Assembly (NCBI GenBank): GCA_963848295.1
Contig: CAWKDB010000002.1
Span: 544,001 to 608,000, forward strand
Direction of reading: 5' to 3'
DNA: 64,000 nucleotides
Origin: an uncultured delta proteobacterium
GTDB lineage: Bacteria; Myxococcota_A; Polyangia; Haliangiales; Haliangiaceae
Within the stretch, counting starts at the first letter, position 1; each line of letters starts with the position of its first letter. The translations under genes and the position numbers were made by a program. Under the pieces are notes generated by a model. That model was not told the DNA's origin. It ran no database searches and was given only the letters and a program-made list of their open reading frames with translations. Below are positions 38,783-62,316 of this stretch, piece by piece.

Positions 38783-40304
38783 TCAGGCGAAGATCGGCAC
38801 CGGCTTCAAGGAGACCTTATTGTCCTTGGTCACGACGCGGAACCGGACGGCGCGGCACTGGTACTGCGCCTTCAGCTTGCCCTCGTTGACCTTCAACTTC
38901 GCGATGAAGTTCTCGAACGACACGTCGTCGGGCTGCCCGACCGACTTCCGCGCCGCCTGGTACTCGGTATAGACGCGCTTGTAGTAGTCGGGCTCGGCTT
39001 CCTGCGCGAGCGCGGCGAGGTCTGGATCCGGCGCCTTGGCTTGCGCCGCGCCTTCGTCGCCTTCGTCGAACTCGACGCGACCGGGCACGATCGGATTGCC
39101 GTCGTCGTCGAACTCTTCTTCACCCGGCTCGGGGCGACCGAGCAAGCGCGCGAGCATGACGTTGAGCCCGTTCGACAGCCCGTCGAGCTCGGGCCCGACC
39201 GGGCGGAACGTGCGATCGAGGTTGCCGCTGATGATGTCGGTGACCCCGAGCTCCACTTGATCGATCTGCGCGATCAGCCGGCGATTCGACAGATACAGCC
39301 CGAGCATCGCGAGCGCGAGCGCGCCGCCGCCGAGCAACAGGATCGCGAGCTTGATCGTCGACGACGAATTGCCGGACTCGACGATCGGCGCGAGCACGAC
39401 CGCGCCGGCGGTGACCGGCGGATACGTCGAAGGGATCCGCTTCGAGTTCGTGAACGCCCGCGGCATCGGTACGCTCGACGCGTAGTAGTCGGTGCCGCCG
39501 ATCGTCACCTTTTGGACATCCATCGACTGCGGGATCTTGCCGGTCTTGAGGAAGTCCGAGAGCTGCTTCGCCCTGCCCGTGTCCTCTTCGCTGCCGCCGC
39601 CCAGGGTCGTGAAGCTCGTCGCGACGACCGTCGGGCCGCTGTAGTAGGCCACGTCGGCGCCGAGCAGCGCCTTGTCGTTCTGCGCTTCCTTCGCGGTCTG
39701 CGCGTACGCGACGACGACGGCGCCGATGATCGTGACGCCGTCCGGATCGTTCGCAGGCGGGGCCTGGTTCGGATCGATGATCGGCGCGACGCCGACCTTC
39801 ATCATCCGATCTTGGTAGTACCAGACGTCGCTGATGATGACCTTGCCGCCGAGCACCGCGTCGATCGCGGGGAGGATGTTGTTGCCCTTGTCATCCTTCC
39901 ACTGCTTCGGGAACGACGTTCGCCACGTCGTTCATCGCGATCAGGTTGCCGTTACCTTCGGCGCTGACCAGCGCGATGATGTCCGGGCGAACCTCGCCTT
40001 CCTTGTCGTTCGCGGTGAACTTCGTGAAGCCCAAGCGCGCCTGATGTTGGCGCTCGCCCGGGTTGTCGACCGCCTTCAACGCCGCGACAAAGCTCGGCTC
40101 CGCGGCGAGCCGCTCGGCCTTGTTCTGAACGTCGATCGCCTCGAGCTGTGCGAGCTGACCGATGACCTGGTACGCGCGTTGCGCCTGGTTATGGGCGTCC
40201 CGCTTGATCTTCTCGTCCAAGTTGGCAGATGTGACAAACAGCGCGATGGCCGCGAGTGCGGCAATCACGACAGCAACGACGGCGGCTATGACCACGCGAG
40301 GCAT
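38783..40304 (-). CDS. MXAN_5187-family membrane protein (periplasmic domain, HAMP-like region, MXAN_5187 C-terminal domain), with one frameshift near 39910
   Basis: ORFs 39891-40304 and 38783-39856 join if one G of GGG at 39909-39911 is removed. C-terminus YKRVYTEY..FIAKL..CRAVRFRVVTKDNKVSLKPVP. Confidence 0.75.
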
Positions 40305-43043: not shown

Positions 43044-44036
43044 CTAGAAGTAGAGGATCGCCGCGAGCCGACCGCGCGTGTAGTCCTCGCTGTCTCCGCT
43101 GTTCGCCGCCGGCGGCGTCGCGACACGGGCGCTCGCCCCGGCCGGACCCGTCGTGCCCGCATCCTGCGACACGGTCGAACGGCTGCCCGCTCGGATGTCG
43201 AGCGTGATGTGGAAGTGCGGCGTGATCGCGTAGCGCAAGCCGGCGCCGATCTCGGCGAAGTCCTGGGTCGTGTTGTAATCGCCGTCGACGTTCGCTTGCT
43301 GCACGCCGAGCCCGACCAGCACGTATGGGGCGAGCTTGTTACGCGCGCCGATTTCATAGAGCAGCGATCCGCCGAGCCGGCGATCGACGCGCTCGTTCGA
43401 TTGATACGTCGTCTTGCCGAGCTCGCCTTCGATGATGAGGCCCTCGGTCAGACGGAAGCGCGCGAGTAGACCGTAGTCGCTCGAGCCCGTCGCCGAGTTC
43501 TGCGGTGCATTGTTGACGTCGGCCATGCCGCCGAACAGGCCGACGCCGAACCGTGGCAGCGGCTGCTGGACGACGAGCGCGGCGCCGACCGAGGGATCAG
43601 CGTAGCCCGGCTGGACCGGGTAGTAGCTCGAGCCGTAGTACGACGGGACGTACTCGGGATAGTAGTAAGCGTACGGGTTGTACCAATACGGGTAGCCGCC
43701 GACCCAGACGTGGCCGTTGACGCCCCAGTGATAACCGCCGCCGTAACCTCGACCGCCGTAACCGTGGCCGCGATAGGCAAAGGCGCCGCCACCGCCGACG
43801 TGAACGCCACCGTAAGCGCGGACGCCGCCACCGCCGACGTGGACGCCGCCCGAGAAGTGAACGCCGCCTCCGAAATGGCCGCCGCCGCTGAAATGGCCGC
43901 CGCCGCCGAAATGGCCGCCGCCACCGCCGCCGTGGCCACCTCCGCCGCCGCCGCCGCGGCCTGCCTCTGCGGTCCCGAGCTGGAACATGGTCGCGACCGA
44001 GAGAACACCGATAAGAATTGGTAGGCGACGAGTCAC
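43044..44036 (-). CDS. Outer-membrane beta-barrel protein with Gly/His/Tyr-rich N-terminal region
   Basis: Signal peptide, GGGGHF repeats, Tyr/Pro-rich segment, barrel strands (PYVLVGLG, EIGAGLRY) and C-terminal LYF. Confidence 0.8.
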   Translation of the reverse strand: MTRRLPILIGVLSVATMFQLGTAEAGRGGGGGGGHGGGGGGHFGGGGHFSGGGHFGGGVHFSGGVHVGGGGVRAYGGVHVGGGGAFAYRGHGYGGRGYGGGYHWGVNGHVWVGGYPYWYNPYAYYYPEYVPSYYGSSYYPVQPGYADPSVGAALVVQQPLPRFGVGLFGGMADVNNAPQNSATGSSDYGLLARFRLTEGLIIEGELGKTTYQSNERVDRRLGGSLLYEIGARNKLAPYVLVGLGVQQANVDGDYNTTQDFAEIGAGLRYAITPHFHITLDIRAGSRSTVSQDAGTTGPAGASARVATPPAANSGDSEDYTRGRLAAILYF

Positions 44037-44330
44037 GGCATTATGCCTTTCGACGTAAGGACCATCGTGCAATGGGACGCGTGGGCGCACCCGTTGGTTT
44101 AGTTTGCACTGGGCGGGCCAGCGCGCCAAGCGCGGATCCCCCACCCAAAGGTTCTTAATAATCGCGGCTTAGGTGTTCTTAATGCGGTGATCTTTTCGGT
44201 CGCGGTGTGTCCTGGGCTTCACGAGCCAAGCTACTGTGGCGCAACGACGACAGAGCGCAACCGTGGCAATCCTGGGGCATCCTTGACAGTTGCGACGGCT
44301 GGTCCCTAAAGTGCCAGCCCGGAGGCTTAT

Positions 44331-45560
44331 TTGAGCGACTCGAAGAAGAGCGGTAGCCGAGACATCAGCGAGCTCAAGCAACGCCTTGGGCTCAAGAAAG
44401 GGGCCGCGCCCGGCGCCTCGACGCCGCGCAGCCAATCCGCCGGCGTGGTGCCGCCTCCCGGCTTGAACCTCCAGCCCCCGCCTGGGCTCGCTCCGCCCGC
44501 ACCGGCGCAGCCCGCGATTCCGAACGCGCACGACGATCCGTTCGGCGCGATGAACGCGATGGCCGCGGTCGGCACGGTGCAACGCGCGCCCGAGATCGTG
44601 ATCGTCAACGACGGCAGGCCGGTCGAAAACGTCGGCTCGGGCTCGGGCTCGATCGTCAAGATCATCATCCCGGCCGTGCTCGCCCTCGCGATCGGCGCGG
44701 CGATCGGCAACATCGGTGCGAGTGCGAGCGCGTACAACCGCGAGGTCGTCGGCGCCAAAGCAATCCTCGGCGACAGGGCGACCGGTCCGAGCTTCCTCGG
44801 TCTACGCGCGTCGCTGTCGTCGCTCGACTCGCTGCTCGAACAAGCGAAGAAGTCGAACTTCGCGCCCGACGCTGCGGTCGACAAGCAACTCGAAGCGCTC
44901 GCGGCAAAGCTCGACGTCGACGACAGCAAGATCTTCAGCACGAAGCTCGATGCATTCGAACCGGCGGAAGCGAGCCAGGTCGTCGGGTTCTACGCCGGCG
45001 TCGCCGAGATCAAGCAGATGCTCGACGACCACATGAAAGCGGCCAAGAGCGATGACCTCGCGATCAAGGCCGGCAAGAAGGCGACCCAGGACGCGACGCT
45101 CACCGACGCCGAGAACGCCTCGCTCGCCGGCAGCCTCCGTTACGCCTTCCTGATGTCCGCACCGACCGACACCGAGCAAGCGGCCTTCGGCGCCAAGCTC
45201 GTCGAGCTCGGCCCGCCGTACTGCAACGACAAGCTGTCGACCACCGGGAAGTGCGCGGAGGGCGAATCGCCGTCGGCATACACCTATCGCAACGAGCCGG
45301 GCGCGCTCTGGTCGAAGGGCGAGCTCGCGTCGCCTGGCACCGACAGCGTACCGACGAAGAAGCTCGTGATGCTGCTGCCGAACGGCATCCGCGACGCGGT
45401 GATCAAAGGCAGCGACCCGGGCGCGTCCGAGGCGCTGTACGTCCATCGCCTGAGGGCCATCTCCGAACGGACCAAGAAGCTGTTGGCCGACTCGGTGAAG
45501 CTCGAGACGACGATCTCGACCGTCGCGAACAAGGGCAAACGCTTTTCGTTCTTCATGTAG
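44331..45560 (+). CDS. Hypothetical single-pass membrane protein
   Basis: GGAGG RBS and TTG; Pro-rich cytoplasmic N-terminus, one TM, helical periplasmic part. Confidence 0.8.
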   Translation: MSDSKKSGSRDISELKQRLGLKKGAAPGASTPRSQSAGVVPPPGLNLQPPPGLAPPAPAQPAIPNAHDDPFGAMNAMAAVGTVQRAPEIVIVNDGRPVENVGSGSGSIVKIIIPAVLALAIGAAIGNIGASASAYNREVVGAKAILGDRATGPSFLGLRASLSSLDSLLEQAKKSNFAPDAAVDKQLEALAAKLDVDDSKIFSTKLDAFEPAEASQVVGFYAGVAEIKQMLDDHMKAAKSDDLAIKAGKKATQDATLTDAENASLAGSLRYAFLMSAPTDTEQAAFGAKLVELGPPYCNDKLSTTGKCAEGESPSAYTYRNEPGALWSKGELASPGTDSVPTKKLVMLLPNGIRDAVIKGSDPGASEALYVHRLRAISERTKKLLADSVKLETTISTVANKGKRFSFFM

Positions 45561-45723
45561 CGGCGCCCGCAAGCGGGCGGCCCCTCGCGCCGAGGTGTCG
45601 GCCGTCCTTGCTTCGCCGGACAGCCGATTGATCAAATGCGCTCGGGGCTGAATTCCTCGCCCGGGTTGCTCGTCTGCCTTGAGCGGTCAGACTCGTGTGA
45701 GTACGATGCGCTCCGGAGGACAT

Positions 45724-46596
45724 ATGGCACGGTTCCGTAACGCTCTCGCTCTCTCGACGGCCTTGGCCCTGGTGTCCGCGAGCGCGCTCGCGGCCGGCAC
45801 CAAGCCAGCTCCCGCCGCGAAGGCCGCACACGCCGCCAAGAGGAGGCCGGCTCCGCCGCTGTCCGCCAACCACAAGAAGGCGCTCGCCGAGCTCTATGCC
45901 GGCTTCAAGTTCGGCATGACGAAGGACGACGTGCTCGGTGTCCTGCAGAAACAGATCGACGAAGCGTCCGAGGACAAGCTCAAGGCGACGACCGACATCG
46001 CCGCCCAGGATCGCATCCGCAGGGACAGGAAAGCCGAGCTCGCGCGCATCGCATCGAGCTACACCGCGTTTGAAACGAAGAGCACGGGTTGGGACGTGTC
46101 GATCATCGCCGGCGAGTTCGCCCACAACACCGGCGAGTCGTTGATGGACCGCTGGGAGAACTCGGGCGGCAAGAACCAGCGCCGGTTCTTCTTCTTCTAC
46201 AACGGCAGGCTGTGGAAGATGTTCGTGTCGCTCGACGTGTCGATCCTTCCCGAAGACAAGAAGAACTTCGAGACGTTCCGCGGCATCCTCGAGGGGAAAT
46301 ACGGCGGCGGTGACGTCGGCGACACCACGATCACGTGGCGCGCGGGCGACTTCGACGTGCGCGCCATCGATCGGCTCAAGGACTACGACGCGCTCGGCCT
46401 CGTGATCGAGGATCCACGTACGCGCGGCGAGGTCGAAGCGCTGCGCGTGACGAAGGCACCGCCGAAAGAGCAGATCAGCCCGGTGATCAAGGCGATCGTC
46501 GATCCCGACGATAAGGATCATCCGAACGTCAAATCGGACTCGGGCGCGGTCGACGCCGTGATCAAGGCCCAGGGCGGCCCGGCCCCGAGGAAGTAA
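45724..46596 (+). CDS. Hypothetical exported protein
   Basis: GGAGGA RBS, signal peptide; FKFGMTKDDV and RRFFFFYNGRLWKM. Confidence 0.8.
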   Translation: MARFRNALALSTALALVSASALAAGTKPAPAAKAAHAAKRRPAPPLSANHKKALAELYAGFKFGMTKDDVLGVLQKQIDEASEDKLKATTDIAAQDRIRRDRKAELARIASSYTAFETKSTGWDVSIIAGEFAHNTGESLMDRWENSGGKNQRRFFFFYNGRLWKMFVSLDVSILPEDKKNFETFRGILEGKYGGGDVGDTTITWRAGDFDVRAIDRLKDYDALGLVIEDPRTRGEVEALRVTKAPPKEQISPVIKAIVDPDDKDHPNVKSDSGAVDAVIKAQGGPAPRK

Positions 46597-46610
46597 ACGC
46601 CGACCGGCTC

Positions 46611-49600
46611 CTAGTTGCCGATCGACTGCGGGCTGTTGGACATCGAGGCGGACTCGCTCGCCGTGGTCAGCGCATCTGGCGTCACGTTGACGTCGAGCTC
46701 GCTGCCGCTGACCGAGCCGTGGCAACCGGCGCACACCGAGTCGAAGAGGCGATCGCCTTGCGCATTCGTCTGCTGCACGCCCATCGACATGTGCTCGCCA
46801 GGTCCGAGCTGATGCTCCTCGCCCATCGTGACGACCGGGTTGCCACTGCTGTCTTGCAGCTCCAGCACGACGCCGGTCTCCGCCGGTAGCTTGACGAGCA
46901 CCGAACCGTCGCTCGCGAGCGGCGCGGTGCCGAGCAGCGTCCGCATCTGGTAGATGCCCATCGTGTTCGCGGTGCACGAGGTGCCGGGCGGGCACATCCC
47001 TTCGGAGTACACCGCGAGCTGCGTCGCCTTGCGGAACTGATCGACCGGGCGGCCGAGGCGCAGATTCCCGGTGAGCATGGTGAACAGCATCGGCGCGTCC
47101 GGCATGTGGAGCGTCGCATGTGCGTTGTCCATCGGGTCGACCGTGCCGTTGCCGAACACGAGCTGGCGGCGGTTGTTGTACATCTCGCGCGCCGGGTACT
47201 TGTACGCGAGCACCGCGTCGACGCCGCCGTTGATGAGCACCCGGTAGTAGTTCGGATCGGTCGCGGGGTCGCGCCGCGGGTTGACCGCGACGATGTCCCA
47301 GCTGGCGCCCCCATCGGTCGTGTACGACACCATGATCTCGCCGCTCGGGAGATAGAACGGCGCGCGATAACCGGTGGTGACGCCGGCGCGGCCGGTCGCG
47401 GCCGGATCGCCGAGGAACTTCACCGAAGGTAGATAGCCTGTGTCGTCGCGGCCGAGCGAGAACGGGCCGACGCTGCGATTGAACGTCGCGAGCGCGCCGA
47501 GCGCGCCATCGGCATCGGACAGGATGATCGTGAACGAGCCGTCATTGCCCTCGCGGATATCGGTCGCCGCGCTGTAGCCGATCGACGGCAGCGTCTTGGT
47601 CAGGTCGGTGAGATCCGCGTACGGCGAGCTCGAGCGCTGCGCGAGCAGCGGGTGGTAGTCCGTCATGTCCCAGTTCATGCGCCGGCCCGAGAGCTGGTAG
47701 AAGCCGGGGCTCACCTTCTCGGTCGTCATCGTCATCCGGCCTTCGCGCATGAAGTGCGGCGAGATCTCCGAGTTCGACAAGAACGTCATCTGCACCGGCG
47801 GCGGCATCGGACTGCCGAGGTCTTGGCGCCAGATGTCAGACTGCGGACCGCCTGCCGCGAGTCGCGCGCGCGTCAGCGACGGGCCGACGCCGGCCTTGCC
47901 GCGAGTCGAAGCGTAGACGACCGACAGGCCGTCGGGCGACCACGCCGGATCGAAGTTGTCCACGTTCAGGCCACCGACCGCCGGCTCGTCCGGCGTGAAT
48001 TGCGTGCACACGCCGGTGGAGATCACGACGGTGTACACGCTGAGCGGCTGATTCGGGCCCTTGCGTGCCGCGAACACGACGGTGTCGCCATCGTTCTTGA
48101 CGTCGGGCGCATGCACATCGGCCGTGCCGGCGACGAGCCCGGCGCAGTTCGCGAGCAGCGACACCGGCGCGCCGACCTTCACCATGCCCTGGCCGAACTT
48201 GTCGGCGAAGCTGACCGGTTGCGCGAGGAGATCGGAGCCGCCTTCGTCTTGGTCGTACTCCAGGCGGCCGAGCTTCGAGCCACCCGGCCGGCTGACGTAG
48301 ACGATCGAGACCGACGTATCGGTCGGATCCATCGCGGACACCGCCGGGCCCAGCGCGGCGCGCTCGACGTCGAGCCAGTCTTGCAACAGGCAGAACGCCG
48401 GCGTGTCGGTCGCGGGCGTCGGGGCCGCCGGATCGAACGCCGGGCACGTCGCCGGATCCGCGACGGGCCTTTGCAGCGGCGCACTGCACGCCGGGCAGTT
48501 CGGCGTCTCGAGCACCGAGCCCGCGCGGTGAGCGATGCCACCGACCTGAGTCGGATCGTTGTCGCTGATCCGCGCGTCGTCGAACAAGATCGTCTTGGCG
48601 ACCGCGCGACCGCGACGGACGTCGGGGTACTCGAGCGCCATGAAGTCGTTCCTCAGCAGCTCGTAGTTCTTCTCGAGCGAGACGTTCGAGAAGAACCCTT
48701 GGGTACCGCTGCGCAGCTTGAAGTCGTTGAACGCCTGTGGGCTGTGACACGCCTGGAACTCGCAGCCGCGCTGCAGCAACACCGGCTGGACGTAGGTCGC
48801 GAAGAAGGTCCGGCCCGGATCGCCCACGCCGAACACCGGTTGCGAACCCGCCACCGAGGTCGCCCAGTTCAGCAGCGTCACGTAGTCGCCGTCGGTCGTC
48901 GACGCGAACTGATCGCCACCGGTGTGGCCGCGACCGCCCGCGGCAACCGCGAGCGGCACGCGCAACAGCGACGAGTCGGACACCGTCGGTGCGACGAACT
49001 TCGCCGCCTGGGTGAAGTTGAACGCGATCTGAGTGTCGTCGTTGCCGCACGTGATGTAGAAGTCCGATTGCTGGGCGCCGTGGCAGTTGCTCGAGGCGCA
49101 GCCGTGATTGCCGAAGTCGGTCAGGATCGGCTGGACGCCCGACTTGAACGCGCCGAAGTTCGGATCGGCTTGCGCCGCCGTCGGGTCGAACGCCGAGCCG
49201 TCGGGGTTCGGTGGGATCAGCGTCGAGCACGCGCCGTTGCCGGTCTGCGCCGGGGTCGCCGGCTTGAGCCCGTCCTCGGTCGCACCGTTCTCCAGCCATG
49301 TCTGCAACGTGTTGAAGCCGTCGGAGTCGACCGCGAAGATCGCCCCGCCGCCGTGGAACACGTCGATCGGGATGAAGCCGTCGCCGTACTGCATCTGCAG
49401 CTTCGTGGAAGCGTCGGCCGGGTTCGGATCGAGGGTCAGTGGCGCGACCGCCTTGATCAGCAGGAGCGGATACGGATACGCGCCGAACCGGGTCAGCACG
49501 TCGCGCCGCTTCGAGATCGAGGCAAACGACGTGACGTCGAGGTTGCCGACCAAGATCTGGGCCGGGCCCTCCGTCGGATCCACGGCATGACAGCCCGAGA

Positions 49601-49751
49601 CGTTGCCGGCGCAGTGCTGCTTGAGCACGGGCTCGACGACGCGGTCGAAGTACGTCGTGCCTGGCGCCGAATCGCACGAACCGCAGCCGCCGACTGCGAT
49701 GCTCCCAGCGACACCAAGGGTGACGAGGAAGCTTACCCAACGTAGCTTCAT
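46611..49751 (-). CDS. Multiheme cytochrome c / TolB-like beta-propeller lipoprotein with hydrazine-synthase-alpha-like C-terminal domain
   Basis: Lipobox VGGC. Three V(E/Q)P(V/I)L-C...CH domains (CAGNVSGCH, CASSNCH, CEFQACH), PD40 repeats (FDPAWSPDG) and LGTAPLASDGS..LELQD..PGE..CAGCH. Confidence 0.8.
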   Translation of the reverse strand: MKLRWVSFLVTLGVAGSIAVGGCGSCDSAPGTTYFDRVVEPVLKQHCAGNVSGCHAVDPTEGPAQILVGNLDVTSFASISKRRDVLTRFGAYPYPLLLIKAVAPLTLDPNPADASTKLQMQYGDGFIPIDVFHGGGAIFAVDSDGFNTLQTWLENGATEDGLKPATPAQTGNGACSTLIPPNPDGSAFDPTAAQADPNFGAFKSGVQPILTDFGNHGCASSNCHGAQQSDFYITCGNDDTQIAFNFTQAAKFVAPTVSDSSLLRVPLAVAAGGRGHTGGDQFASTTDGDYVTLLNWATSVAGSQPVFGVGDPGRTFFATYVQPVLLQRGCEFQACHSPQAFNDFKLRSGTQGFFSNVSLEKNYELLRNDFMALEYPDVRRGRAVAKTILFDDARISDNDPTQVGGIAHRAGSVLETPNCPACSAPLQRPVADPATCPAFDPAAPTPATDTPAFCLLQDWLDVERAALGPAVSAMDPTDTSVSIVYVSRPGGSKLGRLEYDQDEGGSDLLAQPVSFADKFGQGMVKVGAPVSLLANCAGLVAGTADVHAPDVKNDGDTVVFAARKGPNQPLSVYTVVISTGVCTQFTPDEPAVGGLNVDNFDPAWSPDGLSVVYASTRGKAGVGPSLTRARLAAGGPQSDIWRQDLGSPMPPPVQMTFLSNSEISPHFMREGRMTMTTEKVSPGFYQLSGRRMNWDMTDYHPLLAQRSSSPYADLTDLTKTLPSIGYSAATDIREGNDGSFTIILSDADGALGALATFNRSVGPFSLGRDDTGYLPSVKFLGDPAATGRAGVTTGYRAPFYLPSGEIMVSYTTDGGASWDIVAVNPRRDPATDPNYYRVLINGGVDAVLAYKYPAREMYNNRRQLVFGNGTVDPMDNAHATLHMPDAPMLFTMLTGNLRLGRPVDQFRKATQLAVYSEGMCPPGTSCTANTMGIYQMRTLLGTAPLASDGSVLVKLPAETGVVLELQDSSGNPVVTMGEEHQLGPGEHMSMGVQQTNAQGDRLFDSVCAGCHGSVSGSELDVNVTPDALTTASESASMSNSPQSIGN

Positions 49752-49828
49752 AGCTTGATCCTACTCCTAAAATGCGACGAGCCGCGCTTTGCAAGCGCGG
49801 CCCGGATCACGACTCTAGGTCCCGGAGC

Positions 49829-50659
49829 TCAGTGCAACGAGGCGAGCGCGGCTTTGGCCACACCGCTGACGAAGCCCGACGGGTCCTTCGATGCCGCGGT
49901 CAGCGCCTCACGCGAGCTCTCTGCGCCGATCTTGCCGAGCGCCCACGCCGCGTTGTGGCGAACTTGCGAGTTGGCATCGTTGACGACCATCGCATCGAGC
50001 GCCCCGACCGCCGCGCCGTCGCGAAGCGCCCCGACCACAGCCGCCGCTTGAGCGCGCACCCCCGCGTCCGAGTCGGCCAACAGCGGCTCGACCGGTTGCG
50101 CGGAGAGCTGGTTCGATATTTCGCGCCACGCAGCGACCGCCGCCGCGCGGACCGCAGGATCGGCGTCGGCCATCCCGGCCTGCAAGACCCCGTTGCCCTT
50201 CACCGTGCCGAGGCGTTTGATCGCGCGGACGATCGCGAGCTTCGCGTCGCTGTTCACCTTGCCGAACGCCGTCTGCATCGCCGGCAGCGTATCGTACTGG
50301 CGCAGCGTGCCGAGGAAGTCGGCCGCGTTGCGGACCGACGTCGAGTCACTGCCCGCGAGGTTCGCCTTCATCGTCACGATCATCTGGTTGCGCAAACCAA
50401 TGCGTTTGCCGAACCACCAGGCCGCGACTTCGCGGATCTCGTAGCGCGAGTCGGTGAGCAGGCTGCCGACGGACTGCACGCAATCGCCGCAGACCAGCCC
50501 TTCGGCGCGCTCTACCTCAGCGATGATGGCGTCCGTCGAGTTCGATGCAATCGCGCTCTGAATCGCTGCCGCACTACCACCCTTACCAGCGACGGCCGGG
50601 GCAGACGAAGCAGCGATAGCGAGGGCAACCGCGGCGAGTTTTTTACCGATGTTCTTCAT
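49829..50659 (-). CDS. Exported HEAT-repeat protein
   Basis: Signal peptide; LADSDAGVRAQAA and VRHNAAWALGKIG repeats; CGDC motif. Confidence 0.9.
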   Translation of the reverse strand: MKNIGKKLAAVALAIAASSAPAVAGKGGSAAAIQSAIASNSTDAIIAEVERAEGLVCGDCVQSVGSLLTDSRYEIREVAAWWFGKRIGLRNQMIVTMKANLAGSDSTSVRNAADFLGTLRQYDTLPAMQTAFGKVNSDAKLAIVRAIKRLGTVKGNGVLQAGMADADPAVRAAAVAAWREISNQLSAQPVEPLLADSDAGVRAQAAAVVGALRDGAAVGALDAMVVNDANSQVRHNAAWALGKIGAESSREALTAASKDPSGFVSGVAKAALASLH

Positions 50660-50683
50660 GGTTGTTCTCCTTGGTTCCCGCGG

Positions 50684-52957
50684 TTACTGCGCGTTCTTCG
50701 GGTTGTTCTCGCGAGCGTAGAAGTTCACGCCCATGTCAGCAGCGAGGATCAACTTGTAGAACTCCGTCGGAGTGAGCTCGGCGTAGTTCGCACCGTTCAT
50801 CGAGTGCGGCGGGTTGGCCGCGACGTCGAACGCGCGGACCGTCGAATCGGGGTTCGGGAACAGCTGGGTCGGGTTGACCTTCTGGATGACCGGGGAGTGC
50901 GCCGCGTCGGTGGGCAGCATGTAGATCTTGAAGTCACCGACGATCATCAGGTTGTTCTTCTCGATGGCTTCCATGTCCGGGCCGGCCATCGTGAAGTACG
51001 AGTTCGAGAAGGTCTCCATGTTCGCTTCGGTGTCGTCGGCGCCGTAGTTGACGGTCATCGGCGTGTTCGACAGGTCGAAGTGCCAGTTGAGGACGACCGC
51101 GCCCGTCGCCGGGTTGATGATCTGGTAGGCGCCGATGTCGGTGCCGGTCGTCGCGTTGTGGCAGCTGACGCACTTGGCGTCGAACACCGGTTGGACGACG
51201 TCATCCCAGCCCATGCCGACGAGCTTGGCCGTCGAGGCCAGCGTCGTCGCCGCGTCGCCCGCGGGGTCGATGATGTCGGGGTTGGCGAAGTCAGCGGCCG
51301 CCATCATGCGGTCGGCGCGAGCGATGGTGCCCATGTCAGCGGTCGGGCCAACGGCGCCGGCTTGCGTGATGCCCGGGTTGATGACGGTGGTCGCGGCGCG
51401 GTCTTCGTGGCAACCGCCACACACGCGCGATTCGTTCGCGCGGCCCGAGAACCACACGGGCTCGTTGAACAGCGACATGCCGAACTTGTCGACCGTCTGG
51501 AGGTGAACCGGGATGTTGGCCGGCACCGAGGCGAGCCAGCTGCCGTCCGGTTGGACCGGGTTGACGCCGAGGTTCGCATGGCCTTCGAACATCGTCGTGC
51601 CGAACATCTCGGGGAAGCCCTCTTCCGACGAGAAGCCTTCCATCGCGCGGACGCCGAAGATCTCGCCCGGGTTGAACGTGTGGAGCGTCGAGTCGTAGAC
51701 GTTCATCGAGCCGATCAACGTTTGACCGTTGAGCGTGTTGTCGCTGGTCGAGCTCGCCAGCGCCGGCGCGTTACGCGGGGCGAGCGGGCGAGCGAAGATG
51801 TCCCACATGTTGGGATCGTCGAGGATCGGGCTGCGAGTCTGGGTCTCCGTGTTGTAGAGGTAGATGCCGAAGTTCGCCGACAGGCCAGCGGCCGCGAGCG
51901 TACCCGACTCGACCGGGCCATCGGCCCACGACACGAGCAGGTCGGCGTTCTCTTTCGCGTTCAACGGGAACGCGTCGTAGTAGCGGCCGATGGTGTCCGC
52001 CGACGGCGAGTTGTCGAGCGGGACGTCCGGGGTCCAGTTGACGTAGCTCGCGTTCGCTTCCGACATGCGGTCGGCCGCGCTGACGTTTCCGTCGGAGTCC
52101 GTCGACGGGAAGCCGAGGCGGACATCGAGCAGCGCACCGGCGTTGATCGTGCGGTTACGAGCCGTGCCGATCGCGACGAACCGGCCGGGCGAAATCTCGC
52201 GCGCCTTGAGGGTCGAGTTCGACGCCGCGGTGCCTTCTTTGCCGAAGGCTTCACGCAGGTCCGTCATGTCCGAATCGACGAACATGAGGTGGCCGGCGTT
52301 CATCGGGCCGAGGTGGTCCCACTGGGTCATGATCACGCGACCATCGGACGCAAGGCTGATGCCGGTGCGGTGCGACAGGTTGCGCGGTCCGAGGTTTTCG
52401 TTCGTGCCGTCGATACCGATCGTGCCGAGCTGCGTGGTCGTGCCGCGCTCGTATTCGTCTTCGAACTGGTTCGCGCCTGGCTCGACCACGGCGTTGCTGG
52501 TGAACATGATCTGATCGCCGGGGAGGTAGATCGGCGAGACGTAATCACGTTGCGGGTCGGTCGCGAGCGCGGTGACCGTGCCGTCGGCGATGTTGACGCG
52601 GTAGAGGCCGTACGTGCCGCTATCCGACAGCTTGCCAGCGAACACGATCTCCTTCGCGTCGAAGGACAGGTCGTAGCTGTTGATGTCGATGTTGGCGTAC
52701 TCCGGGCCCGCCTGATCGCAGCAGATGGTCGTCAGCGTGCCATCGGCCGTCGGCGGCGAAAGCTCCACGATCCTCGCGCCGGCGATGTACGAGGTGTACT
52801 GGAAGATGTCACCCATGTCGTTGCGCTTTGGGCGCTGCAGGATGATCAGGGAGTCGACATTGCCGAGCGGTCCCGTATTGTCGTCGCCACCACAGCCCAT
52901 CTGGGCGCTGGTGAACAGCGCGGCGCCGATCGCGATGCTCTTCAATTGGTTCTTCAC
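50684..52957 (-). CDS. Hydrazine synthase alpha-subunit-like diheme lipoprotein
   Basis: GAGGAGGAG RBS, lipobox MGC, beta-propeller, GVNPVQPDGSWLASVPANIPVHLQTVD..ESRVCGGCHE, then VQPVFDAKCVSCH. Confidence 0.8.
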   Translation of the reverse strand: MKNQLKSIAIGAALFTSAQMGCGGDDNTGPLGNVDSLIILQRPKRNDMGDIFQYTSYIAGARIVELSPPTADGTLTTICCDQAGPEYANIDINSYDLSFDAKEIVFAGKLSDSGTYGLYRVNIADGTVTALATDPQRDYVSPIYLPGDQIMFTSNAVVEPGANQFEDEYERGTTTQLGTIGIDGTNENLGPRNLSHRTGISLASDGRVIMTQWDHLGPMNAGHLMFVDSDMTDLREAFGKEGTAASNSTLKAREISPGRFVAIGTARNRTINAGALLDVRLGFPSTDSDGNVSAADRMSEANASYVNWTPDVPLDNSPSADTIGRYYDAFPLNAKENADLLVSWADGPVESGTLAAAGLSANFGIYLYNTETQTRSPILDDPNMWDIFARPLAPRNAPALASSTSDNTLNGQTLIGSMNVYDSTLHTFNPGEIFGVRAMEGFSSEEGFPEMFGTTMFEGHANLGVNPVQPDGSWLASVPANIPVHLQTVDKFGMSLFNEPVWFSGRANESRVCGGCHEDRAATTVINPGITQAGAVGPTADMGTIARADRMMAAADFANPDIIDPAGDAATTLASTAKLVGMGWDDVVQPVFDAKCVSCHNATTGTDIGAYQIINPATGAVVLNWHFDLSNTPMTVNYGADDTEANMETFSNSYFTMAGPDMEAIEKNNLMIVGDFKIYMLPTDAAHSPVIQKVNPTQLFPNPDSTVRAFDVAANPPHSMNGANYAELTPTEFYKLILAADMGVNFYARENNPKNAQ

Positions 52958-53109
52958 AGTGCTCCTCCTCGAAAACGAGTGAAGGGCACTAGTACAAGCT
53001 CCAGGCCAAGCTTAAATCTCGTGATTTCAGCCGGTTGATTGTGGGATCGCTCGGGGTCAGAGCCCCCTATTCGGACCCTTCGGGGGCCGGGAGCCCCAAG
53101 CCGCTGTAG

Positions 53110-56472: not shown

Positions 56473-57935
56473 TCAGCCCGCCGCGATCCGCCCCGACATG
56501 CTCACGCCCGCCCCAAGATCTTCGTTCGCATCGAACGGTAGGCTCGTGCCGTCGCGCCATTGCCGGAGCTCGACCTGCGGCGGGCCACCGACCCGCGGCT
56601 GGATCTTGACGTGCGTGAAGCTGCGACGCAGTCCAGGCCGGGTCGCCGGCAGCCATGTGCCGGCGTTGACGTAGAGGCCGCCGCCGCGGATCGGTTGCCA
56701 GCGCGGGTCGTGGGTATGACCGAACACGACGAGTGGGGCGTCGACGAGCTTGCCGATCCGCTCGGGAATCGATCGCATCGGCAGCTGCGAGGTCACCATG
56801 TGCTTGCCGAGCCAGCGCTGGGTCGCGACCGCGCCCGCGACGACCGCGGCGGTCCCGAGCAGCAGCCACAACAGCGGCGCGAGGATCAGCAGCGCGAGGA
56901 TCACGACCGCACCGCCGGTGATCAGGCCGAACTTGTCGAGCATCAGCATGCGGCCGAGCCGGCGCCAGCTGATCGTGAGCGGCGAGCGCGCGAGCCGATC
57001 GATCGCACGCGCGGTATCGAGCGGCACGCCGCCGGCCTCGGCGACCTGGACGATGCGCTCGCGATGGACCCGGCGTCGGCGATCGCGGCGGCGCAGCGAC
57101 TGATGCAACGCGCGCGCCCCGACGAGCGACCACGCGAACCGCGCGTACGCGACCCACAACCGGGTCGAACGAGCGAATGCCCGAGCTCCCACGCGTAACG
57201 CAGGTAGCCGCTGAAGCCCCACTCCTCGATGCCGTGCGGATCGAGATCGGGGACCGCCCTGCCGAGGTAACGGATCGCCGCGTAGTCGGCGTTGTAGACC
57301 AGGCGGCCGTCTTTGGGATCGGTCGGCGCGAGGTTGAACTCGAACGAGCAGCCCTCGTCGTAGACGTGGCCGTGCTCGATCCAGGCGACACCCGGCACGT
57401 AGATGAACCACGGCACGACGCGGATCCGCGCGAGCGCCCGATCGGCGGCGGCCCGGCCGCTGCGGGTGACGTCCGACGGCGTCGCGCTCCGCAGCTGGCG
57501 CTCGAATTCGGCGATGACCTCGGGCTCGAGCAGCTCGACGTCGTGGTTGCCGACGATGACCTCGATCGTGTGCCCCGCCGCCGCGAACCGCACGAGGTCG
57601 GCGAGCAACGGCACGTGGTGCTCGCAGATCTCCCGGACCCGCACGACGCCCGCCTTCACGCCGCGCCCGAGGCCGAGCCGACGCTCGTCGGCGGACCGCG
57701 CCGGCAGCTCTTTGGTCGAGGCGACCACGACCGACATGAAGTCGAACAAGTCGCCTGCGATCACCAGCCGCCACGGGCGACCGTCACTGCGCCGCGCCGC
57801 GTGGTACCGCAAGAACTCGCGAAACGCGGCGTCGCCGAGCTCGACCGCGCGCCGGCGCTCCGACGATGCTCCGGGCAAGAGCTCCTCGCCGAAGTGCAGA
57901 TCAGACACGACCAAGATGTTGGAGACTTCAGCCAC
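56473..57935 (-). CDS. Calcineurin-like metallophosphoesterase with membrane insert, frameshifted near 57180
   Basis: SDLH, GDLFD, GNHD and EHGH lie in one frame; VFGHTH and YVNAGTW lie in another. Confidence 0.8.
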
Positions 57936-58070: not shown

Positions 58071-60217
<2,147 letters not shown>

Positions 60218-60221
<4 letters not shown>

Positions 60222-60589
60222 TTTCGCGCTCGATGACTCGCTGGCTGTTGTTGTGCCTGGTCGCGGGCGCGTGTGGTGGAACGGGGGCGCGCTCGGAGTG
60301 CGCCGAGGGCGGCGCGCTCACCGATTGTCCCGACGCCGATCACACGCCCGAGGCGGCCTGTTGGCGGCTCGTCGATTGCGGCGCGATTCCGGCACAATCG
60401 ACCGGGGACAACAATGCATTCGATTACGGCCGATGCATCGATCGGATCGAAGGCCTCGACGACGCGGCGGAGGAGCTCGCGATCGATTGCATCGCCGCCT
60501 CGACGTGCGACGCGCTCAAGGTCGACGGCTCACCGGATCAACCGAACGCCGGCCAGATCCATTGCTTCTTGATCGCGGGGCAGAACTAG
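60218..60589 (+). CDS. Small Cys-rich lipoprotein
   Basis: ATGA overlap; WLLLCLVAGAC lipobox followed by eight further Cys. Confidence 0.7.
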
Positions 60590-62316
60590 TGCGCGCGGTC
60601 GTCGTGGTCGGCGTCGCGCTCGCGGTGCTGATCGGTGCCGGTCGTGCCCACGCTCAGCCCGCCGATGTTCCGGGCCTGATCAAGCTCATCACCGATCAGC
60701 CGGCAGACATGGATCGGTCGACGTGGAAGGAGAAGCGCCGCGACGCCGCGCGCAAGCTCGCCGAGACCAAAGACAAGCGCGCGACGCCGGTGCTCACCAA
60801 GCTCGCCGAATCCGAGACGTTCGACATCATCGGCGAGATCGCGATCGAGGGGCTCGGCACGCTCGGCGACCAGGACGCGGTCCCGACCCTGCAACGGATC
60901 GCGGCCGACAGCTCGCGCGACAAGGATCAGCGCGACCTCGCCCGCAAAGCGCTGGCCAAGCTCGGCGCGGCGGAGCTGCCGCCCGGCGCGACCGGCGGCG
61001 GCACGACCGGAGGTAGCGGCGACACCGGCACGACCGGGCTCGACACCGGAAAGCCGCTCGACACCGGGACCACGCCGCTCGACACGGGATCGACCGGCTC
61101 GGATCTGACCCGCAGCCATGGACCGACCGATCTGCCGCCGCTGCCGGAGCTGCCCGACGACACGCTCGCGTCGTACGACCGGCTCCAGATCGCGGGCGGG
61201 ACCGCCGGGCTGCAATACGACACGGTCCGCAAGGAGCTCGACTTCAACGCCGACATCGCGGCGAGCTTGCAGCGTCGCGTCGAGCGCACGAAGCTCGCGT
61301 GGGGCTACGATGCCGGCGGCGAGCTCGTGACCGGGTTCATCAACCCCGAGGGTCGCGCGCAGTCGCGCGGTGCGCAACTCGATGTCAGCGGCGACGGCGA
61401 GGGTCGCTACTACCTCGGCGACGCCTACGGCATCGCGCGCGCCGCGGTCGCGGTGCAGATGGACTACACCGCGTATATCGACGGCAACAATCCGGGCAAC
61501 GACTTCAAGGACACGCGGTTCTCGGCCGATGGCGAGATCGCGGTCGGCGGTGGCTATGGTCGCCAGCTCGATGTCGGCTCGGCGATCCGCGTGCGCCGGC
61601 TCGCCCGCGCGCTCGACGCGAATCGCGCGCTCGGCCGACCGATCGACGCCGCGACCGCGAAGAAGCTGCAGCTGACCTGGTGGGCGCTGCGCTCGGAGCG
61701 GACCACGTATCGCACGCTGATCGCGACCGTCGCGATCCTGCGCGAAGCCGGGATCTTGTTGAGCGAGCCCGACGCCGGCCTGACCTACGAGATCCTCAAC
61801 GTCTTGCGCGACTCGTGGCTGTACGCGCGGCCGAGCGGGTTCGATGCGAACCTCGTGTTCGGCGAAGGCTACTTGCAGCGCCCGGCCGACCCGATGATCG
61901 AGAGCGGCCAATACTCGCAGCTGCTGCTCTCGGCCGGCTACGCCACGAGCATCGACGACGACAAGTTGCAGCTGTCCGGCAACGCCTACGGGCGCTATCG
62001 CCTGCTCGCCCCGATGGGCGCGCCCTCGCCGTGGGCGCTCGGTGCGACCGGCGAGCTCCAGCGCTTCACGTATGCCGAGCACGGCGATCCGATCGGCGCG
62101 ATCGACCTCACCGCGACGCTCGCGACGTCGAGCGACGACATCATGGGCGTCGACAAGGGGCTGAGCATCGGCGGGCAGATCGGATTCACGTATTTTCTGA
62201 ATCCGGCGTCGGGAATTCGGCTCGCGGGATCCCTGGTGGAAGATGGCGGGAACCTATTTGTCGGGGCGCAGCTGCAGGCGACCTACGGGCTGCTCGAAGG
62301 ATCGTTTGCGAGGTGA
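60589..62316 (+). CDS. Exported protein with N-terminal HEAT repeats and C-terminal beta-strand-rich (barrel-like) domain
   Basis: GTG at 60589, signal peptide ending AHA, AIEGLGTLGD..ARKALAKLG, G/T linker and amphipathic strands. Confidence 0.75.
   Translation: MRAVVVVGVALAVLIGAGRAHAQPADVPGLIKLITDQPADMDRSTWKEKRRDAARKLAETKDKRATPVLTKLAESETFDIIGEIAIEGLGTLGDQDAVPTLQRIAADSSRDKDQRDLARKALAKLGAAELPPGATGGGTTGGSGDTGTTGLDTGKPLDTGTTPLDTGSTGSDLTRSHGPTDLPPLPELPDDTLASYDRLQIAGGTAGLQYDTVRKELDFNADIAASLQRRVERTKLAWGYDAGGELVTGFINPEGRAQSRGAQLDVSGDGEGRYYLGDAYGIARAAVAVQMDYTAYIDGNNPGNDFKDTRFSADGEIAVGGGYGRQLDVGSAIRVRRLARALDANRALGRPIDAATAKKLQLTWWALRSERTTYRTLIATVAILREAGILLSEPDAGLTYEILNVLRDSWLYARPSGFDANLVFGEGYLQRPADPMIESGQYSQLLLSAGYATSIDDDKLQLSGNAYGRYRLLAPMGAPSPWALGATGELQRFTYAEHGDPIGAIDLTATLATSSDDIMGVDKGLSIGGQIGFTYFLNPASGIRLAGSLVEDGGNLFVGAQLQATYGLLEGSFAR

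Follow-up and report, generated by a model that had tools for sequence, protein, structure and literature searches.

The origin of hydrazine synthase (HZS) is an open question, and the available part of Hagglund et al. 2025 (PMC12758564) reports more than 600 structural matches to its alpha subunit, with the non-anammox homologues lacking Tyr591 and Cys303 and none of them having an experimentally confirmed function. The homologues treated in that part as clades I-IV were chosen for their linkage to beta-gamma genes; clade I is described as lacking His772, and clades II-III as lacking haem II. In HZS itself, the alpha-I motif residue His587 is a zinc ligand and Tyr591 an iron ligand, as given in the accessible portion of PMC12607021, while the zinc-binding propeller residue Cys303 is absent in Scalinduaceae according to the accessible sections of PMC12758564. 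Here we describe an operon of three genes, A, HEAT and B, in a 64,000-nucleotide stretch of contig CAWKDB010000002.1 from an uncultured delta proteobacterium (the whole of this stretch is referred to as the window). A and B encode lipoproteins of the HZS-alpha family, and the gene between them encodes a HEAT-repeat protein. We put at roughly 55% the probability that the trio forms an inducible, lipid-anchored periplasmic oxidoreductase with six haems, which is tethered to the membrane and handles a small oxidant, and does not make hydrazine.

The main text of PMC12758564 nowhere mentions Myxococc-, Haliangium, Sorangium, Polyangi- or Kofleri-; in the available part of its supplement, Sorangium, Polyangium and Sandaracinus stand with Bacteroidota and Bacillota in a large tree that we take to be the beta-gamma tree. 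No publication on an A-HEAT-B trio was found in open-access PMC and bioRxiv, and supplementary tables S3-S7 of PMC12758564 may list myxobacterial alpha matches. The HZS-alpha family is already known, and the three-gene arrangement was not found in print. A first-pass annotation of the window had proposed HZS-alpha-like proteins in a non-anammox bacterium; such proteins are present here, but their presence is less of a surprise than was then thought, since Pfam already lists homologues (PF18582) and a 2025 paper describes them (PMC12758564).

Fold, haem motifs and predicted partner

All three open reading frames (ORFs) are full length and co-oriented in the order A-HEAT-B, with gaps of 24 bases between A and HEAT and 77 bases between HEAT and B, and a Shine-Dalgarno-like sequence precedes each of the three starts. 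The genes and their haem motifs are as follows (aa, amino acids; residue numbers in brackets):

50684-52957, minus strand: gene A, a 757-aa lipoprotein with a GTG start; six-bladed propeller (about 33-395), HZS_alpha middle domain and C-terminal cytochrome domain
51407-51421, minus strand: haem I motif of A, CGGCH (513-517), invariant in 83/83 sequences, with E-x-R next; position 521 is never Tyr
51158-51172, minus strand: haem II motif of A, CVSCH (596-600); likely second ligand H718, near HZS His772
49829-50659, minus strand: HEAT gene, a HEAT-repeat protein of 276 aa with a signal-peptide-like N terminus and invariant C57-x-x-C60 and W81-W82
46611-49751, minus strand: gene B, a 1046-aa lipoprotein; three cytochrome domains, propeller (about 480-855) and HZS_alpha middle domain, without a C-terminal haem domain
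48354-49655, minus strand: three mutually related cytochrome domains of B (33-466), with CX6CH/H133, CX4CH/H276 and CX4CH/H408; likely bis-His haems, judged from sequence
46719-46733, minus strand: haem 4 motif of B, CAGCH (1007-1011), in the middle domain; invariant in 53/53 sequences

That three co-oriented, exported genes stand here with short gaps had been claimed at first pass, and the positions, strand and gaps agree; the signal peptides were assessed by eye, and the lipoprotein-type Cys is kept in relatives (A C22 in 62/64, B C23 in 54/54). The GC content of the trio resembles that of the remainder of the window.

To compare the two lipoproteins with HZS alpha, profile searches were combined with structure models. 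Both proteins exceeded the Pfam cut-off for HZS_alpha (PF18582; 26.6 bits), A with 49.5 bits and B marginally with 27.0 bits, and they are the only PF18582 matches in the window's genome (G000, 85% complete). For both models (predicted local distance difference test, pLDDT, 88.9 for A and 82.6 for B) the first Foldseek match was chain A of the Kuenenia HZS structure 5C2V, with E 3.8e-28 and TM 0.64 for A and E 1e-19 for B. The A model aligned to this chain over 577 residues with Z 33.6, a root-mean-square deviation of 3.9 and 21% identity, the next match being TolB with Z 24.7. A wide structure search with the B model returned propellers only, with 5C2V not among the matches listed. Compared directly, A and B gave only 27 bits in BLASTP, and hhalign aligned them with 99.75% over 466 columns at 18% identity, spanning propeller and middle domain. 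As modelled, A has the whole HZS-alpha fold, with propeller, haem middle domain and C-terminal haem domain in the same order, and B shares the HZS-alpha propeller and middle domain. The motifs and domain layouts drawn for A and B in the first-pass annotation are thus borne out by sequence, profile and structure model.

Six CXnCH motifs are conserved in the two proteins. In A, C513, C516, H517, C596, C599 and H600 are invariant in 83/83 sequences, and H718, present in 82/83, lies no more than three columns from HZS His772 in a profile alignment in which the numbering is chain numbering plus 27. In B, the sets C47/C54/H55/H133, C218/C223/H224/H276, C330/C335/H336/H408 and C1007/C1010/H1011 are invariant in 53/53 sequences. 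The three N-terminal motifs are widely spaced (C47-X6-C54-H55, C218-X4-C223-H224, C330-X4-C335-H336), the first being CX6CH in 44/53 sequences and CX8CH in 9/53; the spacings given in the available part of PMC11492766 are CX3CH, CX4CH, CX11CH, CX15CH and CX17CH, a list without CX6CH and CX8CH. A count of CxxCH motifs would consequently overlook three of the four haems of B. The invariant ligands hold across 27-70% identity. The three cytochrome domains of B match one another, and their language-model neighbours were small cytochrome c and PSCyt1-type proteins, including one cluster with PF07635 on 16% of its members. Three further Cys pairs are conserved in B (175/235, 436/454 and 536/582), and C57-x-x-C60 is found in 61/61 HEAT sequences; these are likely to be disulfides, with the pairing suggested by sequence. 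Candidate second ligands in the middle domains are not conserved (M456 and M494 of A and H980 of B all vary). The pattern of an exported multihaem c-type cytochrome, conserved CXnCH motifs together with maturation genes, was found in the six invariant motifs and in ccmE, ccmF and ccmB of the genome. Because of this combination, A and B together likely carry six haems, in line with the earlier estimate of up to six: four would have two His ligands, and the two in the middle domains would lack a conserved second ligand within those domains.

Stand-alone copies of the CX4CH cytochrome domain of B are encoded at L077:6943-11195 and at L078 (G000:C2:199988-200740 and L078:9723-10994), one amid CxxCH, thioredoxin-like and Rieske genes and one adjoining a DUF3570 gene. 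Very large multihaem cytochrome clusters, with up to 31 CX2-4CH motifs per ORF, lie at G000:C10:437915-456277 and C10:4198029-4206215.

To assess whether the HEAT protein could act as a partner, HEAT (25-276) was modelled together with A (27-757) using ESMFold2. The interface score ipSAE was 0.87 across three runs, whereas none of three controls exceeded 0.00; at least 74% of contacts were common to the runs, and the partner pLDDT was at least 89. This mark was reached by 116/157 solved pairs and 2/215 mismatched pairs, counts that are only rough with the alignments used here. The predicted HEAT contacts on A fall on the propeller (46-48, 84-87, 127-136, 161-171, 183-185, 268-269 and 351-358), on a middle-domain loop (447-450) and on the C terminus. 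These models support the idea that HEAT clasps the propeller of A, and, as far as binding goes, the earlier suggestion of the HEAT protein as scaffold or chaperone.

The residues and subunits specific to HZS were then compared. At the position of Tyr591, four residues after the motif His, A has A, T, S, V, D, G or K in 83/83 sequences (position 521) and B has S, T or E in 53/53 (position 1015), and neither ever has Tyr. For Cys303, A has no Cys between 81 and 512, and the columns of the matching region each have Cys in at most 9/83 rows. The NCBIfam equivalog hydrazine_alpha (NF052339) gave 69 bits for A against a cut-off of 800, and no match for B. The bis-His haem alpha-II domain is present in A by sequence (CVSCH invariant, H718 in 82/83) and absent from B. 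No beta- or gamma-like gene was found in the operon, as had been claimed, or in its conserved surroundings, with the refinement that an unlinked beta-gamma-like lipoprotein is encoded on another contig of the same genome (G000:C4:157720-159663, equivalent to L099:7721-9664, minus strand). This protein has 648 aa, a seven-bladed propeller and two CxxCH motifs, and weakly matches chains B (E 5e-8) and C (E 5.5e-7) of 5C2V; a lipoprotein gene without a Pfam match lies directly upstream of its gene. Its relatives occur in 16/151 class genomes, namely 12/51 carriers of A and four genomes without A. With both beta-gamma types counted, 19/51 carriers have one, which is a floor, as one type was scored by a stricter first look; an obligate in-trans beta-gamma partner was rejected on this count. 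The one CCP_MauG match proved to be a stand-alone dihaem protein encoded on another contig. PF13447 (the octahaem HAO/HDH family) had no match in G000, nor in any of 14 controls. Because the Tyr ligand and the zinc Cys are absent and there is no obligate beta-gamma partner, the trio, on its sequence, is not hydrazine synthase, and the N-N chemistry of hydrazine synthase type that had been suggested for it finds no support.

Inheritance, relatives and promoter

With A as a single query, 20/251 phylum genomes matched, all in the window's class. Profile searches of 151 class genomes, which are kin and not independent samples, found A in 51, B in 50, HEAT in 50 and all three in 49, and neither B nor HEAT ever occurred without A. 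A and HEAT were adjacent in 48/51 carriers, and the full order A-HEAT-B was kept in 42/51; among the other nine, six were fragmented or at a contig break, one had HEAT below threshold and two (G114 and G059) had B elsewhere. The expected three-gene synteny is therefore conserved, within one Myxococcota class. Presence tracks family: the window's own family has the trio in 16/17 genomes, others in 14/19, 7/19 and 6/6, and three more in 0/20, 0/11 and 0/10. The trio is single copy in most carriers, the A and B subtrees largely mirror each other by eye, and the more distant matches carry Polyangiaceae and Sorangiineae labels, in keeping with Polyangia as the name of the class.

A profile search with B revealed a further family, here called C, of about 950 aa, in which two CX4CH domains, a propeller, a middle domain and a C-terminal haem domain are joined in one chain. 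Family C is spread patchily across the phylum; its profile matches 5C2V chain A with E 6.7e-52, and hhalign relates it to B with E 6e-100 and to A with E 6e-55, B being more like C than like A. Its loci include a propeller-dihaem gene with profile matches to HZS beta (1.8e-23) and gamma (1.2e-11), DUF3570 in 15/20, ApbE in 6/20 and sometimes a thioredoxin-like gene. DUF3570 is described in the available part of PMC8238504 as a flavinylated ApbE substrate tied to extracytosolic electron transfer. The operons of this family in other Myxococcota (L079-L098) comprise the four-haem alpha-like gene, a small CX4CH lipoprotein, DUF3570, a 180-aa lipoprotein and the beta-gamma-like gene, and a longer subtype adjoins FGE-sulfatase-domain and RidA-like genes (L089, L096, L097). 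Two genomes, G089 and G394, have two B-type genes each, and both also have family C. Other HZS-alpha-like families of 700-1330 aa occur in the phylum (L102-L110): the L107/L108 proteins group nearest A with modest support, and L109 lies beside a beta-gamma-like gene.

In trees, A, B and C formed separate, well-supported groups, and a 60-row quick tree also separated A and B. An approximately unbiased (AU) test, run on 27 rows and 539 columns under LG+G4 without a mixture, with two long rows excluded, no true HZS-alpha outgroup and identity near 18%, rejected A and B as one clade (p-AU 0.0075). The origin of A and B by simple tandem duplication of one gene was rejected on this moderate evidence, and, since the test keeps A and B apart, it is not established that they arose by a plain split of family C. 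These sequence comparisons give moderate support to the idea that A and B came from different branches of the HZS-alpha family and are not sister lineages. The earlier description of A and B as two paralogs can stand loosely, in that they belong to a common fold family, but they are very distant (18% identity) and not each other's closest lineage.

Upstream of A, three elements were identified:

53082-53098, minus strand: palindromic box 1, GGGG-N7-CCCC, 89 bases before the sigma-54-type site; likely activator (enhancer) site
53052-53068, minus strand: palindromic box 2, GGGG-N7-CCCC, 59 bases before the sigma-54-type site
52993-53009, minus strand: putative sigma-54-type -24/-12 element, TGGC-N7-TTGT (TTGC in some relatives)

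The loose pattern TGGC-N7-TTG(T/C) was present in 42/59 upstream regions of A, against 0.55 in shuffles. It occurs mostly in Kofleriaceae-type loci, with 11 more distant loci (L054, L056-L067) unmatched, partly from uncertain starts, and its -12 element is GT, not the GC of the sigma-54 consensus GG-N10-GC, in the window and most relatives. Of 44 aligned upstream regions, 42 have one or more GGGG-N7-CCC boxes; box 1 is conserved at a fixed distance in the alignment, and the two boxes persist where mutS is not adjacent (L013, L023). When matrices were trained without the window's promoter, that promoter, scoring 63 against a threshold of 24, was the sole match in 7.8 Mb. A looser genome scan gave 204 candidate sites, among which no other promoter had two good boxes, and no co-regulated genes sharing the boxes were found. 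The genome has an rpoN gene; FNR/CRP-type sites were found in 0/59 upstream regions, and a sigma-70 scan returned nothing on the coding strand. From these patterns, we infer that the operon is read from a sigma-54 promoter with a dedicated activator at the two boxes, a promoter whose activator could lead to the inducing signal.

In the neighbourhood comparison, no fourth gene was conserved class-wide beside the trio. The flanking genes (mutS; the 305-aa, 409-aa, barrel, hydrolase and kinase genes) were rejected as members, being kept mainly in the closest relatives. Upstream of A lies mutS, and at its other end the operon meets a convergent 305-aa gene; a weak terminator-like feature (one found against 3.3 expected in shuffles) spans the stop of B:

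46599-46626, minus strand: terminator-like hairpin over the B stop, facing the convergent 305-aa gene

Three genes without Pfam matches lie at window positions 43044-46596; their products are an exported protein (305 aa), a membrane protein (409 aa) and a Gly-rich protein that is likely an outer-membrane barrel (366 aa). In many Kofleriaceae-type loci these genes remain grouped beside the operon, with the 305-aa gene inverted in some. Outside the operon, genes apparently broken by frameshifts lie at window positions 38783-40304, 56473-57935 and 58071-62316: an MXAN_5187-family gene split over two ORFs, a gene likely for a phosphoesterase, and an Fe-S/CCG oxidoreductase running into a HEAT gene. 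Outside the window, haem-copper oxidase genes are likewise fragmented, and the breaks in both sets are likely assembly indels. A divergent gene of the haem-copper oxidase superfamily, possibly of the quinol NO reductase type, lies at G000:C2:661681-662932 in an 825-aa frame.

Proposed function and rival explanations

The oxidoreductase that we favour could work as follows. A sigma-54 activator would bind the two boxes and turn the operon on, and the Ccm system would attach six haems. The four bis-His haems (B1-B3 and A-II) may store or relay electrons, and the two middle-domain haems, which would lie under invariant propeller residues, would be the reactive sites. A and HEAT would form one module, with which B would act as a second, bearing a three-haem wire. 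The invariant propeller residues are D167-E168-Y169, H196, W213, H215 and R267 in A and E662, K679 and Y699-H700 in B; their placing on one propeller face was read from secondary structure. The context of family C (a beta-gamma-like dihaem protein, DUF3570 and sometimes ApbE or thioredoxin-like genes) was counted in favour of a redox role, and by analogy our best guess is that the substrate is peroxide or a nitrogen oxide.

Several observations weigh against this interpretation. Residues at the predicted interface are not more conserved than others (0.48 against 0.55 in A, 0.50 against 0.55 in HEAT), in a comparison in which buried core residues were counted. B lies apart from A-HEAT in at least two genomes (G114 and G059), and not within the 20 kb of G124 examined. 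The neighbourhood comparison found no membrane electron donor or other partner gene conserved beside the trio. HZS haem alpha-II is beyond electron-transfer range of the other haems, as given in the available part of PMC12607021, so that A-II may not be a relay. Finally, the guess at the substrate is drawn solely from likeness to family C.

A bolder form of the proposal is that the trio is a new, beta-gamma-independent haem enzyme assembled from two HZS-alpha lineages. In it, the HEAT solenoid would replace beta on A, B would be a three-haem wire with CX6-8CH, and a His/carboxylate propeller pocket, possibly metal-binding, would sit above a middle haem with undescribed chemistry, all under a dedicated sigma-54 activator. 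We regard this whole combination as tentative, with perhaps one chance in a few of being right. If true, it would show what role the alpha fold had before anammox and alongside it. In either form, the trio offers a compact test case: its three genes are mostly single copy, and expression of the predicted A-HEAT pair could proceed without beta-gamma.

Alternatively, the haems may serve structure or sensing and not turnover, the trio then being a scaffold in the envelope or a complex for ligand binding, with propellers that attach to a partner or a surface. Sigma-54 control is common among myxobacterial motility and development genes, and single copy number, vertical inheritance and family-wide presence or absence would suit a cell-biological machine; no electron donor gene lies near the trio. 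A possible parallel is TfcP of Myxococcus xanthus, a repurposed cytochrome c that is unlikely to carry electrons, according to the available part of 10.1101/2021.07.28.454143. However, four domains each keep two invariant His, the pattern of electron-transfer haems, and the nearest family with informative context, C, is tied to dihaem peroxidase-like and flavinylation genes. We consider a structural or sensing role unlikely.

The trio could instead be an electron conduit or store only, linking membrane respiratory chains to surface acceptors without a catalytic site. Consistent with this are the three tandem bis-His-type domains of B, the single copies of its cytochrome domain that the genome encodes elsewhere, next to DUF3570, thioredoxin-like and Rieske genes, and the genome's many multihaem proteins. 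By contrast, the invariant polar and aromatic clusters in the propellers of A and B suggest binding pockets, and no porin or quinol dehydrogenase gene is linked. We consider a pure conduit decidedly improbable.

Nitrogen-oxide chemistry akin to that of HZS, in which NO or hydroxylamine is bound or converted, perhaps with the unlinked beta-gamma-like protein, is a slimmer prospect still. Its appeal lies in the fold, which is that of the subunit where hydroxylamine is proposed to react (available part of 10.64898/2026.02.25.707902), and in the beta-gamma-like lipoprotein encoded at G000:C4:157720-159663. Yet proteins of that type accompany A in only 12 of 51 carriers and occur in four genomes without it, both types together reach the floor of 19/51 given above, the 59 upstream regions have no FNR- or CRP-type site, and no nitrogen-cycle gene is conserved nearby.

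That the trio is a genuine hydrazine synthase serving a hidden anammox-like pathway has a negligible chance of being correct: A does have the full set of three HZS-alpha domains and the two ligands of haem II, but it scores 69 bits against 800 for hydrazine_alpha, the Tyr at His+4 is missing in 83/83 sequences and a conserved propeller Cys is missing too, no beta or gamma gene is linked, and named homologues make the host a Kofleriaceae-type myxobacterium. This has a bearing on surveys, as metagenomic HZS_alpha matches from soil and sludge often come from myxobacteria and are no marker of anammox.

Comparison with known systems

The six-bladed propellers of TolB and other proteins resemble the trio in the propeller alone (Z about 24-27); they have no haem domains, and TIGR02800 gave 17 bits against a cut-off of 343. 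PSCyt1 (PF07635)-like domains share with the cytochrome domains of B a helical build and a wide CXnCH motif, whereas Pfam gave no PF07635 on B, and the first motif of B is CX6CH or CX8CH.

The likeness to HZS alpha of Kuenenia stuttgartiensis (5C2V/5C2W chain A) extends further. A has the same three domains in order, the two CxxCH motifs and, close to the position of His772, an invariant His, and B shares the propeller and middle domain. The trio differs from it in having no Tyr591, no conserved equivalent of Cys303 and no linked beta or gamma gene, and in having lipoproteins, a HEAT partner and three extra cytochrome domains on B. Family C of the Myxococcota, like the trio, has B-type CX4CH domains, a propeller, a middle domain and an A-type C-terminal domain. 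Unlike the trio, it is a single four-haem chain that is closer to 5C2V chain A, linked to a beta-gamma-like dihaem protein and an outer-membrane/flavin module, and it has no HEAT gene.

The homologues of clades I-IV, together with PF18582 and the 'HzsA-related protein' clusters, are like the trio in fold, in the canonical CxxCH of the middle domain, in the loss of Tyr591 and Cys303 and in having no assigned function, as far as the available part of PMC12758564 describes them. A keeps both haem II ligands, unlike clade I, described there without His772, and clades II-III, described without haem II. The same part of PMC12758564 describes no HEAT partner, two-alpha operon or CX4-8CH domains for clades I-IV, three further differences from the A-HEAT-B operon.

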